A stretch of DNA of 64,000 nt from sequence record MN850585.1, one strand, 5' to 3'. Position 1 is the stretch's first letter. Each line of letters starts with the position of its first letter. A model generated the notes under the pieces. The model was not told the origin of the DNA and ran no database searches. It saw nothing but the letters and a program-made list of their open reading frames with translations. The position numbers and the translations under genes were made by a program. This DNA comes from Escherichia phage skuden. Positions 46,080 to 58,182 of the stretch are shown here, piece by piece.

Positions 46080-46579
46080 TAATTAAACCTTACTTTTTGT
46101 TTAAGGACTGTTGAATGGTTACCAGATTCATCTACCACATTTACAATCATATCATATACTTTGCCTTTGACAAGTACTTTGTAATCATTTTGTGAAAAAA
46201 TGTATTCAAGTCTGTTTGTTTCTTTATTAACTGTCATTGGAGATTGAAATGCAGTGTCGAGGGTAATGAAAGCGGCTTCAATGCTATTAACATTGATACG
46301 TTTATTCTCGCAGTTATATAACTTTACACCCAAAAGGCATGAACTGTCAAATGGAATTTTAACAATTTCACTACAATTTCCTGAAATAAACGGTTTTCCA
46401 CTCATTGGTGCATCAAGTAACCTGCAAATAGTGAAAACGTCAGAGGTTCCACCATCACTTACATAACCTGAAAGGCTGACCCTTGAGCCAGCCTCTACAG
46501 ATAATTTGTCAGTGATAATAAGAACACCTCTATACGAATGCACTCGTGTAGCATTTGAAATAGAGATAACTTCAGCCAT
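46079..46579 (-). CDS. hypothetical protein
   Basis: ORF track 166 aa. Confidence 0.4.
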   Translation of the reverse strand: MAEVISISNATRVHSYRGVLIITDKLSVEAGSRVSLSGYVSDGGTSDVFTICRLLDAPMSGKPFISGNCSEIVKIPFDSSCLLGVKLYNCENKRINVNSIEAAFITLDTAFQSPMTVNKETNRLEYIFSQNDYKVLVKGKVYDMIVNVVDESGNHSTVLKQKVRFN

Positions 46580-54854: not shown

Positions 54855-54861
54855 ATTAATT

Positions 54862-54938
54862 TGGTCTCTGTTGGAGGACTTGAACCTCCGGCCTTACCGC
54901 CCCAAACGGAACGCTCTACCAAGCTGAGCTAAACAGAG
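54862..54938 (-). tRNA. tRNA-Pro (anticodon UGG)
   Basis: Acceptor CTCTGTT/AACAGAG, D-arm GCTC/GAGC, anticodon loop TTTGGGG, T-arm GGAGGTTCAAGTCCTCC. Confidence 0.7.
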
Positions 54939-55103
54939 ATAAACTTTTCAAACTCTATGTAACCACTTTAACATTATTTTTTAGTGATTGTCAAGAACTT
55001 TTTTAAAATATTTTTCAGTATCTTAGAAAAGCTCTCGTTTCGTTTCTATGTAGAACATATTAAAGGGTATCAAACACATTGTCAATACCCTTTTTAAAAC
55101 TTT

Positions 55104-56519
55104 TTACCAGATATAGCGGTCAATCATTACTGCTTTGAGCATTACGCTGATTGGGTCAAACTTCTCACCACCAAGCAGAGCTTTTAAAGTGGCTGGAGAG
55201 AAACCAGATACCATTGCTACACCGTTATCCTTAACAGACACTTCGCAAGTACCATTACGGTTTGCTAAGTACCAGAATACCAGTTGTGGCATTTCGTATC
55301 CAGCTTTCTTGTACTTACTCTGAATTGCTTCAAAGTTTGTACGACCGTTAGCTCCATCAACCTGATTGAACTCCATATCGGAGAAGATGATAAGCTTACT
55401 TGGCATATCTTTCTGAGTCAAGTTGTTTCTTTTACCTGTCTCAAGAATACGGTCAAAAGCTGCTTGTAAGTTAGTTGAACCATATTCAACATGACGCATC
55501 ACCTGACGATGACGGTTTCGTAAATCACCACTCAGTTCGATGAAGTGAGGGTTTGTTGAGTAAACCATTAACTCATTCTTAAAGCAACCAGTATTGCGTT
55601 CTGCTACATACAAGGCAAGTGATACACCAATATCCAGAGCAGTAATGGAGCCAAAATTCACCCAAGACATTGAACTTGATACATCAGACATACACAAGAT
55701 GTTTTCACCTTCTGCCATCCAGTTTGGTAGTGCTTTCCACTGCTCATTAGCAACATCTGCATTACCATACTTGACAGATTTAATCACATCGTATGGGTAA
55801 ACAGCACCAGCGTTAATCTTAGTCTCACCTTTTGATAAGGACTCGATGTAAGCTTTGTAACGCTCTCCATCTTTACGGTTAAACAGTTTTTGGTAACGTG
55901 CAGCAGCAAGTGAAGGAATCTTACTGTAGTCAATCTTACCAAACTCATTAGCAGAGATTTTTTGCTCAACTGTATCAGATAGTGCAGACAACAGTGTGCG
56001 GTACTCTTTCTCACTCAAGTTGGCAAACTTGCAGAAACGTTTTACAAACTGCTTATGACGTGGTTTGACTCGTGGTAACCACTTAGCCGCCAAACCTGCT
56101 GTTGCAGGGTCTAGTAATGCTGCTTCTAAATGTTTGAAGGCATCTGTCTCGAAACGAGTACCTACGAAGATTTTGAAGTCATCAAAACGACCAAGTTCTG
56201 CAATCTTATCCATAATGCGAAGAACCTGCGTAGACTCTAAAACTTTGTCTTCAATTGCTTGAAGCAAAACAGTTCTAAAGGCTTTACGCTCACCCATACC
56301 TTCTCGTACATCTCGCATATGAAGCAAAATACGAACTGCAACATCAACATCCTCACGCAAAGCTTTGTAGAACAGGTCTGGTAAGATTTCTACGTTGCTA
56401 CGGCTTGAACCAGCAGCTTTGTAAAAGTCTACAAGAGCAGACATTGATGAAGTATGGTTTACAGCACCATTTTCAGTTCGACCTGCATGAAGGTGCGCAT
56501 GTTTAAATAATTCGCTCAT
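55104..56519 (-). CDS. von Willebrand factor A (vWA) domain protein with MIDAS motif
   Basis: 471 aa; MIDAS DxSxS at CMSDVSSSMS, then GSTNLQ and LIIFSDMEF; helical N-terminal 270 aa of unknown fold. Confidence 0.6.
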   Translation of the reverse strand: MSELFKHAHLHAGRTENGAVNHTSSMSALVDFYKAAGSSRSNVEILPDLFYKALREDVDVAVRILLHMRDVREGMGERKAFRTVLLQAIEDKVLESTQVLRIMDKIAELGRFDDFKIFVGTRFETDAFKHLEAALLDPATAGLAAKWLPRVKPRHKQFVKRFCKFANLSEKEYRTLLSALSDTVEQKISANEFGKIDYSKIPSLAAARYQKLFNRKDGERYKAYIESLSKGETKINAGAVYPYDVIKSVKYGNADVANEQWKALPNWMAEGENILCMSDVSSSMSWVNFGSITALDIGVSLALYVAERNTGCFKNELMVYSTNPHFIELSGDLRNRHRQVMRHVEYGSTNLQAAFDRILETGKRNNLTQKDMPSKLIIFSDMEFNQVDGANGRTNFEAIQSKYKKAGYEMPQLVFWYLANRNGTCEVSVKDNGVAMVSGFSPATLKALLGGEKFDPISVMLKAVMIDRYIW

Positions 56520-56600
56520 ATTTTACTCTCTTCTCTCATTTGTTTGTTGATGTGACAGACTTTAGAGCAACTTTGTAGAGTCTGTCAACACCTTTTAAAA

Positions 56601-56972
56601 TTATTTTTTGAGAGTCGCTACAGCAGAGAACGTTGGTTTGTTATCTGTCTGTTGTTGACCACCATTATCAGGAGTCTTCTTAGTGTCTGCTGCAAGTGCT
56701 TTCATCTCACCTGCTGAGTGGGTAAAGATAGTTTTACCGACATCAATCATACTCTTGATGGTTACGTCATCTGTGTTTAACCCGAACTCTGCAAGCTTAG
56801 CCGCGTCCCTTGTAACAATCGCCTCAAACAGCTTTGCAGCGAACTCAGCAGAATTATCAATGGTCAGTTGAGCTTTTACGAGTGAACTTTTGTTACGAGA
56901 GCCTTTTGGTCTTCCAGATGGGTTTCCAGACTGGCCTTTTTTAAACTGGCCTTTGTTTGTTCTGTTTTTCAT
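56601..56972 (-). CDS. small basic protein with GNPxGRPKG motif
   Basis: 123 aa; N-terminus KGQSGNPSGRPKGSRNK; upstream of and co-oriented with the vWA gene. Confidence 0.5.
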   Translation of the reverse strand: MKNRTNKGQFKKGQSGNPSGRPKGSRNKSSLVKAQLTIDNSAEFAAKLFEAIVTRDAAKLAEFGLNTDDVTIKSMIDVGKTIFTHSAGEMKALAADTKKTPDNGGQQQTDNKPTFSAVATLKK

Positions 56973-57099
56973 TGGTATGCCTCTTATAAGACCTCTTAAA
57001 AGGCTTTTAAGATAAAAGATAGATATCCAGAAAGATATCTGTTTAAATAGCCTTTTTAGAGGAACCTTTTAAGTTATCTTCTAAGTATTTATAAGCCTA

Positions 57100-57123
57100 C
57101 ACCTTGTCAAGTCCTTTGTCAAC
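57100..57123 (+). promoter_or_regulatory. conserved motif CACCTTGTCAAGT plus TTGTCAAC half-site, copy 3 of 3
   Basis: Same architecture as 16591-16614; divergent intergenic region upstream of the plus-strand block starting at 57201. Confidence 0.5.
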
Positions 57124-57200
57124 AACTTTTTTAACTTGCAATAGTTCTTGACTTGTTGTATGGATTACTGTACCATCTTACTTAAAGCTGTAGGTCTGCC

Positions 57201-57383
57201 TTGTTCTACAAAGGAGACTTAATGAGAAAATCAAATAAACCGAAGAAAGGTAAGAATACCAATCACTGTAAGGAATCAAAAAGGGTAGAATTAATCTACT
57301 ATTCATCCTCTGAAATTGGTCTGTACCTGTTCTTTCAAAATTACAGAAGACAAGAGGATTATCTATGTGTAGTTCCCAATTAG
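57201..57383 (+). CDS. hypothetical small basic protein
   Basis: ORF track 60 aa. Confidence 0.35.
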   Translation: MFYKGDLMRKSNKPKKGKNTNHCKESKRVELIYYSSSEIGLYLFFQNYRRQEDYLCVVPN

Positions 57384-57598
57384 AAATCGCAGATATTATA
57401 GATTTATATCAAACTGCAAAGAGTCATGGCTATATAACCTCAATTGGAAAGAATAGTCACTATGATGCTTTGACTGGAATGTATTTCAGGGCAATGGCTC
57501 AATCTAGTGAACAACACTTAGTGGTTTCTTCCAGTGAGTTTACTTCGTTTCTCTATTGCAGCAAAATTATAAATCGCAGGAGAACTGAAAAATGTTAA
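57365..57598 (+). CDS. hypothetical protein
   Basis: ORF track 77 aa. Confidence 0.4.
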   Translation: MCSSQLEIADIIDLYQTAKSHGYITSIGKNSHYDALTGMYFRAMAQSSEQHLVVSSSEFTSFLYCSKIINRRRTEKC

Positions 57599-58182
57599 CA
57601 GTAAGTTTTAATTACAATAGTGACGGCTCTGTATCAATTAACTCACCATATGCAAATGACCTACTTAAAGAGCTAGTCAATCAGTGTGAGAGGGGTCTTC
57701 ACTATGTTCAAAATTCTTTTAAACAGAAGACTATTGCTAATAACTTGATGCGTGTAACAGTGACGGCATCTAATCCAAATTATGACTTTGATAGTGAAAG
57801 TCCGTACTCATTAGTTGCGCTTGGAGAGTCCAGCCAATTCAAACTTGTTTGCCACGACTCAGAAACATTCCTTAAGGTATTTTCCAACCTTATCCATAAT
57901 AATAAGTACAGCTACGTTGATGGTAGTGTAAACTTCTATCCAGCAAACTATACATGTTTGTTGACTGATAATATGAGAAAAAGTAAGCAAGAGCCTACAG
58001 AAATCTCATTTGATGTGAACTCTAGTCCAGACGCAGAAACAAGTAAGAACTTTGATATGAGTTATGCGTTGTCACTCAGTAAGAAATCCGAGTTCATTGA
58101 TTATGTCAATGGATTTGGTTTTAAGTTTGATGAGAGTATGAATCTTAAAAAACTTAAGAACCTACTTAAGACCAAAGCTTAA
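57592..58182 (+). CDS. hypothetical protein
   Basis: ORF track 196 aa. Confidence 0.45.
   Translation: MLTVSFNYNSDGSVSINSPYANDLLKELVNQCERGLHYVQNSFKQKTIANNLMRVTVTASNPNYDFDSESPYSLVALGESSQFKLVCHDSETFLKVFSNLIHNNKYSYVDGSVNFYPANYTCLLTDNMRKSKQEPTEISFDVNSSPDAETSKNFDMSYALSLSKKSEFIDYVNGFGFKFDESMNLKKLKNLLKTKA

Follow-up and report, generated by a model that had tools for sequence, protein, structure and literature searches.

The Escherichia phage skuden (sequence record MN850585.1), of which a stretch of 64,000 nucleotides (nt), hereafter the window, was analysed, carries next to its tRNA array a gene for a 471-residue protein which, judged by its predicted structure, is a divergent phage Ro60-type ring protein with a vWA domain and a MIDAS (metal ion-dependent adhesion site). 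The spacers of the same array hold four conserved RNA units, here called A–D, which are likely to be the partners of this Ro-like protein, and we consider it quite probable that protein and RNAs together form a ribonucleoprotein (RNP) serving RNA surveillance or repair as well as counter-defence. The assignment of the protein as Ro-like already exists in databases and in a preprint and is not new; the family of Y-like RNAs with an ACAGCAA box, and its link across phyla to DUF2828-type Ro proteins, appear to be uncatalogued in Rfam 15 and in the literature searched.

The Ro60-like protein

The gene occupies 55104-56519 on the minus strand, as it did in the initial annotation of this DNA, which was made from the sequence alone and had seen in the protein a vWA/MIDAS domain with a Ro60-like pattern. 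The protein matches Pfam DUF2828 (residues 172-264, 102.2 bits) and DUF7788 (residues 274-455, 148.9 bits) above the curated cut-offs; of the TROVE, DUF2828 and vWA models against which a search had been proposed, DUF2828 was recovered, whereas TROVE (PF05731) was not matched at E <= 1, where DUF2828 and DUF7788 were the only hits. It also matches phrog_850 (PHROG 850) at E 5e-184, and both PHROG 850 and RefSeq carry the label “RNA-binding protein”. All the peptides quoted in the initial annotation are present, namely CMSDVSSSMS at residues 276-285, GSTNLQ at 347-352 and LIIFSDMEF at 376-384, and the residues of the intact MIDAS (D279, S281, S283, T349 and D381) do not vary among 52 aligned homologues, whose identity goes down to 40%.

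Because searches of PDB sequences gave nothing significant (a single-sequence search returned no match, and a profile search reached Ro60 only at a non-significant E of 0.58, in the vWA part), the Ro60 fold was shown via structure prediction. In the AlphaFold model (pLDDT 89.8) the N-terminal ~270 residues, earlier described as helical, are indeed all-helical, and a Foldseek search with the predicted structure returned Ro60/TROVE proteins, at full length, as all of its top 12 PDB matches, which bears out the Ro60-like pattern. The tabulated comparison gives figures of 21.2 and 393 for Xenopus Ro60 (1yvp), 15.3 and 352 for phiLo Ro60 and 10.7 and 266 for Rsr, against 9.8 or less and 186 or fewer for generic vWA domains; as Ro60 proteins score above generic vWA domains, the N-terminal half is predicted to be TROVE-like and the protein to have a divergent Ro60 fold. 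The arrangement by which Ro60/TROVE proteins are recognised, a toroid built from helical (HEAT-like) repeats, with a C-terminal vWA domain that closes it, is seen in the predicted structure. Ro60/TROVE proteins bind Y RNA on their outer surface and single-stranded RNA in their central hole.

Homologues occur in 709 phage records, among them Ounavirinae and phages of Vibrio, Klebsiella, Cronobacter, Aeromonas, Campylobacter, Listeria, Staphylococcus, Enterococcus and Bacillus, and cluster L mycobacteriophages also carry one, annotated “Ro-like RNA binding protein”; besides those in phage genomes there are thousands of metagenomic homologue sequences.

RNA units in the tRNA-array spacers

Directly downstream of the Ro-like gene and on the same strand, as had been observed, stands an array of 25 tRNA genes (50108-54938, minus strand); the tRNA-like fragments and long tRNA-free spacers reported within it are real, and the spacers hold units A–D. 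On the minus strand of the spacers the 5' motif CAGAAGACCNNTTACAGCAA is repeated in four copies, where 0.11 would be expected by chance, each with a partner NNGGTCTGG 45-125 nt downstream. All four units share at their base a 7-base-pair (bp) helix AGACCNN/NNGGUCU, an AGA/G internal loop and a largely unpaired UUACAGCAA, with a box that reads (U)UACAGCAA throughout, and the module is laid out as the 7-bp covarying helix, a 2-nt linker, the invariant ACAGCAA box and the 3' strand followed by a G. The outer 4-bp helix covaries among the copies (UGAC/GUCA, UUAC/GUAA, GAGC/GCUC).

Three of the units, all on the minus strand, are short Y-like RNAs. Unit A (54694-54772), between tRNA-Glu and tRNA-Met, consists of an outer 4-bp helix, the AGA/G internal loop, the 7-bp helix AGACCAA/UUGGUCU, the linker UU and the ACAGCAA box; unit B (54536-54605), between tRNA-Met and tRNA-Asn, has the helix AGACCGU/ACGGUCU and the ACAGCAA box; and unit C (54131-54210), downstream of tRNA-Asp, has the helix AGACCAA/UUGGUCU, the outer helix GAGC/GCUC and AUACAGCAA. 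Unit D (53987-54123, minus strand), 1.0-1.1 kb downstream of the Ro-like gene, is a YrlA-like tRNA mimic made up of a terminal helix, the ACAGCAA box and V-T-acceptor-D arms (133.7 bits with a covariance model, folding z-score -2.97). Its T arm, GAAGG-UUCGAUU-CCUUC, is preceded by a V-like hairpin, its acceptor-like 7-bp hairpin, ACUCGGC-AGAU-GUCGAGU, is closed, and its D arm, GUGU-AAUGGUA-GCAC, has GG in the loop. The search for Y-RNA-like elements that the initial annotation had called for gave a divided result: the Rfam models found no Y RNA or YrlA in an E-value scan of 49500-58000, whereas the spacers proved to contain these four conserved, covarying units.

The tRNA-Met gene between units A and B (54609-54685, minus strand; ARAGORN) has an unusual D arm and, alone among the 25 tRNAs, is missing from the matches of the Rfam tRNA model at E <= 1.

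Conservation of the RNA module among phages

Orthologous units are present in Suspvirus and Mooglevirus, and the same module (7-bp helix, a linker of 1-3 nt, ACAGCAA, and the 3' strand with its G) stands beside the Ro-like gene in unrelated phages. Klebsiella phage FBKp34 has three to four units, one of them YrlA-like, Cronobacter phage S13 has one YrlA-like unit, and mycobacteriophage LeBron has three, the middle one of which scores 39.8 bits with Rfam YrlA against a gathering score of 69; two were found in Campylobacter phage CP81, three in Listeria phage List-36 and one in Fusobacterium phage Fnu1. The module accompanies DUF2828-type genes in phages of Proteobacteria, Firmicutes, Actinobacteria, Campylobacter and Fusobacterium.

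For ten YrlA-like units, drawn from Ounavirinae, FBKp34, S13 and LeBron, the RNAalifold consensus comprises the terminal helix, T arm, acceptor hairpin and D arm, with compensatory change in 16 of 23 pairs and covariation in both the acceptor hairpin and the terminal helix. Paired cells amount to 96.1%, compared with 42-47% when the partners are slid, and none of 500 shuffles reaches the observed values. In a set of 21 units representing six lineages, neither CAGCAA nor the 3' G varies, and each of the seven helix pairs has changes on its two sides.

R1, a covariance model trained on the ten YrlA-like units, detects further members that it was not trained on: units of Bacillus phage FADO (65.6 and 56.4 bits), interleaved with tRNAs as in the window, three tandem units just past the stop codon in a Staphylococcus phage, and others in Enterococcus, Aeromonas and Fusobacterium phages, every new member being on the gene's strand. 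A first descriptor, which demanded G-C as the second pair, had missed the Firmicutes units, where that pair is A-U, and these were recovered by the covariance model. Strand specificity also holds in a metagenomic sample of 65 diverse viral loci encoding homologues at 40-47% identity, where all 38 matches of R1 at E <= 0.05 are on the gene's strand and a strict descriptor gave 35 matches, spread over 31 loci, on that strand, against 2.3 in shuffles and none at all on the opposite strand; the gene is at most 1 kb away for 28 of these 35, and none falls within the gene. No full-length model match was obtained in loci without a Ro-like gene, including marine relatives that have a tRNA array, and in Rfam scans of five other phage loci no family covers the units. 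The literature searched on DUF2828, DUF5681, YrlA and Ro-like proteins contained no description of the RNA motif, although the supplementary phage table of Chen et al. 2014 might list the LeBron RNA.

The idea that the repeats are pac or terminase DNA sites was rejected on account of their strand specificity, their covariation at the RNA level and their presence beside a Ro-like gene without a nearby terminase. An origin as tRNA-junction artefacts was likewise rejected, given the strand specificity, the RNA covariation and the occurrence of the repeats beside a Ro-like gene without a nearby tRNA.

Over-long 'tRNAs' of 113-121 nt in Cronobacter S13 (locus L014, 7896-8016 and 8026-8138) and Klebsiella FBKp34 (L012, 8003-8116) are complete tRNAs with an inserted hairpin, then UAUUCAGCA or UUACAGCA. 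In S13 the insert takes the place of the anticodon loop, and in FBKp34 it stands between the D arm and the anticodon arm; the form is a circular permutation of the YrlA-like layout in which the docking helix is closed and the acceptor open.

On balance we favour the view that DUF2828-type phage Ro60s have an uncatalogued partner RNA class of their own, with a covarying helix and an ACAGCAA box, typically woven into tRNA arrays and occurring in three interconvertible topologies, viz. a hairpin on its own, a tRNA in circular permutation (YrlA-like) and an otherwise complete tRNA into which a box-bearing hairpin is inserted.

Comparison with known Ro60 and Y RNA systems

In the bacterial system of Rsr (Ro60) with the Y RNAs YrlA and YrlB, YrlA has the arm order V-T-acceptor-D within a terminal stem (PMC4201824; Rfam RF02553). 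Known Y RNAs offer Ro60 a terminal stem and an adjacent single-stranded box (GGUCCGA, GNCGAA or CGAA), and a second module recruits an effector, e.g. PNPase. The phage system shares with that of Rsr a ring protein with a vWA domain, RNAs encoded beside its gene, one long RNA with V, T, acceptor stem-loop and D arms next to shorter RNAs that have the docking module only, and, beside the stem's 5' strand, a conserved box that is short and single-stranded (PMC4201824). It differs in that the protein is unmatched by Pfam TROVE, in that the RNAs are embedded in a tRNA array, and in the box itself, which is ACAGCAA and not GNCGAAN0-1G near the 5' end; unit D is not scored by RF02553, and even the LeBron RNA, at its 39.8 bits, stays short of the 69-bit gathering score. 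The Ro60 of Thermus phage phiLo is a recognised TROVE protein with CGAA-motif RNAs, Yrl1 and Yrl2 (PMC12135203; PDB 9KOP, 9L5Y); it has a sequence identity of about 15% to the window protein, and its system lacks a tRNA-like module and a tRNA array.

Proposed mechanism and function

As regards RNA processing, physical RNA binding and the recruitment of an effector, we infer the following course. The units would be transcribed from the array's own promoters and freed by host tRNA-processing enzymes (RNase P and the 3'-end processing of the flanking tRNAs). Strong promoter-like sites stand ahead of units and tRNAs at 55085, 54994 and 53590, and two tandem sites at 54965-55085 on the minus strand, TTGACA-17-TAATAT and TTGACA-18-TAAAGT, which have a common A/T-rich upstream repeat (family D11), would drive the array of tRNAs and Y-like RNAs; since units A–D lie within 7-15 nt of tRNA ends and downstream of promoter-like sites, tRNA processing would release them. 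The phage units match the known Y RNA architecture with a different box, which suggests that the Ro-like ring would bind the 7-bp helix, of free sequence, together with the single-stranded ACAGCAA box on the 5' side of the internal loop. The circularly permuted tRNA body of unit D may then link the ring to nucleases or to enzymes that recognise tRNA, or serve as a decoy, and the resulting RNP would function in RNA surveillance or repair and in counter-defence during infection. Genes for RtcB, RNA ligases, polynucleotide kinase and CCA-adding enzyme near the Ro-like gene in other phages point to a role in RNA repair or surveillance.

Listeria phage List-36 (L017, 4426-4977) has a match to the ROOL RNA (RF03087, 91.5 bits, gathering score 99.1, E 3e-17) about 1 kb upstream of the Ro-like gene and between tRNA genes, with RtcB and an RNA ligase downstream.

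The functional evidence comes from the orthologue in BASEL phage Bas63 (JohannRWettstein), gp130, which is 98% identical and whose gene also lies upstream of tRNA genes (10.1101/2024.10.10.617714). Deletion of gp130 leads to small plaques on a host with the Ppl defence (10.1101/2024.10.10.617714), and in MG1655 gene 130 is dispensable, with a fitness of about +0.9 to +1.1 (tables of 10.1101/2024.10.10.617714). In the authors' speculation, “some tRNA genes are possibly Y RNAs” (10.1101/2024.10.10.617714); the preprint names no RNA, whereas the candidates put forward here are four unannotated spacer elements and not annotated tRNAs, two of them overlain in Bas63 by the spurious open reading frames bas63_0137 and bas63_0138.

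Several observations weigh against units A–D as partners of the Ro-like protein in such an RNP. Besides the missing TROVE match, unit D is unmatched by YrlA in an Rfam scan of 53950-54260 (311 nt, E <= 10). The 21 units compared were picked by a descriptor that demands complementarity, which makes their 99% helix pairing partly circular, and the evidence is therefore the covariation and the site statistics, not the pairing percentage. About half of the 65 metagenomic loci are without a strict match, no unit was found within 4 kb of the Ro-like gene in Serratia phage BF, and Vibrio V09 and Aeromonas Ah1 have weak or variant copies only. Knock-outs of the Bas63 'genes' 137 and 138, in the spacer of units C and D, had no fitness cost in laboratory hosts (10.1101/2024.10.10.617714), and gp130 alone, from a plasmid or inserted in T7, restores growth of T7 on Ppl hosts (10.1101/2024.10.10.617714). 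It follows from the last result that the anti-Ppl activity needs none of the phage RNAs, either because it is RNA-independent or because host RNAs replace them.

This rescue of T7, like the dispensability of units C and D in laboratory hosts, would be expected if the Ro-like protein acted alone as an anti-defence factor, binding or blocking Ppl or a host RNA, with the units as unrelated processing signals or decayed tRNA duplicates; tandem tRNA duplication can indeed yield a permuted tRNA, and partial T-arm and D-arm matches do occur at tRNA junctions. We regard this explanation as unlikely, since unrelated phages of five bacterial phyla carry the helix and ACAGCAA module beside the gene, on the gene's strand only and often 30-420 nt from the stop codon, since this module is present without a nearby tRNA in LeBron and in Staphylococcus and Fusobacterium phages and is missing in relatives with the tRNA array but without a Ro-like gene, and since the acceptor hairpin and terminal helix covary.

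In Vibrio phage V09 (L013, 5961-6011) a short helix GACAUU/AAUGUC with the UUACAGCAA box surrounds both the start codon and the ribosome-binding site of the Ro-like gene, which suggests possible autoregulation in KVP40-like phages. If the protein bound ACAGCAA-box hairpins only in cis, for autoregulation of its own mRNA or for the processing or stability of tRNA precursors, and not as free, effector-tethering Y-like RNAs, this V09 arrangement would find an explanation, as would the single unit ~30 nt past the stop codon in many metagenomic loci, which resembles a 3'-untranslated-region element, and the position of the window units within 7-15 nt of tRNA ends. A purely cis role is nevertheless improbable, if a shade less so than a protein acting alone: the Ro-like gene's own 5' leader in the window contains no box, and four copies, one of them with a complete tRNA-like body, have the trans-acting design of YrlA, which would be superfluous for a cis operator.

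The neighbouring DUF5681 gene

The gene at 56601-56972 on the minus strand, whose coordinates stand as in the initial annotation, encodes a 123-residue protein with an AT-hook-like GNPSGRPKGSRNK and two long helices; Pfam gives DUF5681 only, the protein contains KGQSGNPSGRPKGSRNK, and its close relatives are confined to Ounavirinae-like phages. The invariant GNPxGRPKGSRNK resembles the HMGA AT-hook (weak profile match, E 0.29), GRPKGSRNK being close to the core of that motif, and a model of moderate confidence (pLDDT 70.8) shows a disordered basic N-terminus followed by two long helices.

The initial annotation had treated the DUF5681 and Ro-like genes as a two-gene unit, and they are adjacent, co-oriented and kept as a pair across Ounavirinae. 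That they form a functional two-gene module now seems highly improbable, as DUF5681 genes overlap the gene for the large terminase (TerL) in other phages and are found alongside tRNAs, TerL and portal where no Ro-like gene is present, Ro-like genes of other lineages lack a DUF5681 neighbour, a promoter-like site separates the two genes in the window, and their essentiality in Bas63 is opposite: Bas63 gene 129 is essential, with a fitness of -3.1 to -3.5 in MG1655, like portal and capsid (10.1101/2024.10.10.617714).

From context and essentiality we lean towards the DUF5681 protein being the small terminase (TerS) of Felix O1-like phages and not a partner of the Ro-like protein. In distant members of the family, the DUF5681 gene overlaps the TerL start or lies directly upstream of it in the same orientation, and in the window and its marine relatives the tRNA array intervenes. 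Two marine metagenomic loci (L025, 4028-8380; L026, 2763-6520) contain a DUF5681-like gene, eight tRNAs, a Terminase_6N TerL and a Mu-type portal, and lack both a Ro-like gene and Y-like units. The families of TerL (Terminase_6N/6C, 48062-49678) and of the Mu-type portal that follows it (46579-48054), both downstream of the tRNA array in the window and TerL on the minus strand, are those of the marine relatives, and the DUF5681 gene is most likely a member of this TerL and portal packaging module. Like the genes of small terminases, it lies upstream of TerL and heads the packaging module, and its product is small and essential, with a basic N-terminus and then long helices; unlike them, the protein has no match among terminase-small Pfam families, PDB sequences or PDB folds, including solved TerS structures, and the gap to TerL in the window, filled by the Ro-like gene and the tRNA array, is 6.9 kb. 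Since the marine gene order lacks a Ro-like gene, the Ro-like module looks like an insertion into an older TerS-tRNA-TerL arrangement, and Staphylococcus phage S-CoN_Ph7 (L023, 3349-8497), in which a Ro-like gene, three Y-like units and HNH endonucleases lie between the annotated TerS and TerL, suggests that the gap between the two is a favoured insertion site.

Other features of the locus

The region is 97-98% identical to that of many Felix O1-like phages (Felixounavirus), and it is kept in 252 phage records. Between the DUF5681 stop and the Ro-like start lies a sigma-70-like promoter, TTGACA-18-TAAAGT (56559-56588, minus strand), its TTGACA perfect and its function deduced from the consensus match. 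An inverted repeat, TGACAGACT-N17-AGTCTGTCA (56559-56594, minus strand), overlaps this promoter-like site and may act as an operator or, at the transcript's 5' end, as an RNA hairpin.

Between unit D and tRNA-Lys there is a 150-nt multibranched element (53841-53990, minus strand) with a 24-bp closing stem (-48.3 kcal/mol, z -6.26), which is kept in Bas63, SUSP1, Sf13, HP1, Moogle and ESh22 with some compensatory changes, in two clades only, and which could be an RNase III site or another non-coding RNA; the spurious reading frame bas63_0138 overlies its equivalent in Bas63. A degenerate tRNA-like sequence at 53044-53140 (minus strand), called by neither ARAGORN nor Rfam, combines a T arm and a 9-bp stem of acceptor type with an encoded 3' end GCCA and an oversized 'anticodon' loop that contains CCA, and the adjoining 53141-53281 folds better than shuffles (z -2.3). 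Further along, the 255-nt spacer after tRNA-Ser contains a long hairpin (52694-52793, minus strand), with a terminator-like hairpin just upstream and a chance-level Rfam match to MIR473 (32.7 bits against a gathering score of 52).

Implications

For the hundreds of Felix O1-like genomes that are therapeutic candidates, these results offer annotation fixes concerning the spurious open reading frames and 'tRNA-OTHER' calls that overlie these RNAs, and the missing small-terminase assignment. Ro60-Y RNA particles have long been studied while their function has stayed elusive, and the phage versions have so far barely been examined; here an orthologue, gp130, has a phenotype, protection against Ppl, and units A–D are concrete, conserved candidate ligands with a defined docking box. 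The questions thereby opened are what the ligand of the protein is, whether the tRNA mimic serves as recruiter or decoy, and what keeps the system in the company of tRNA arrays and RNA-repair genes. If the RNA class proposed here is borne out, a single RNP would connect the tRNA arrays of phages with RNA-repair genes and with anti-defence activity against Ppl.

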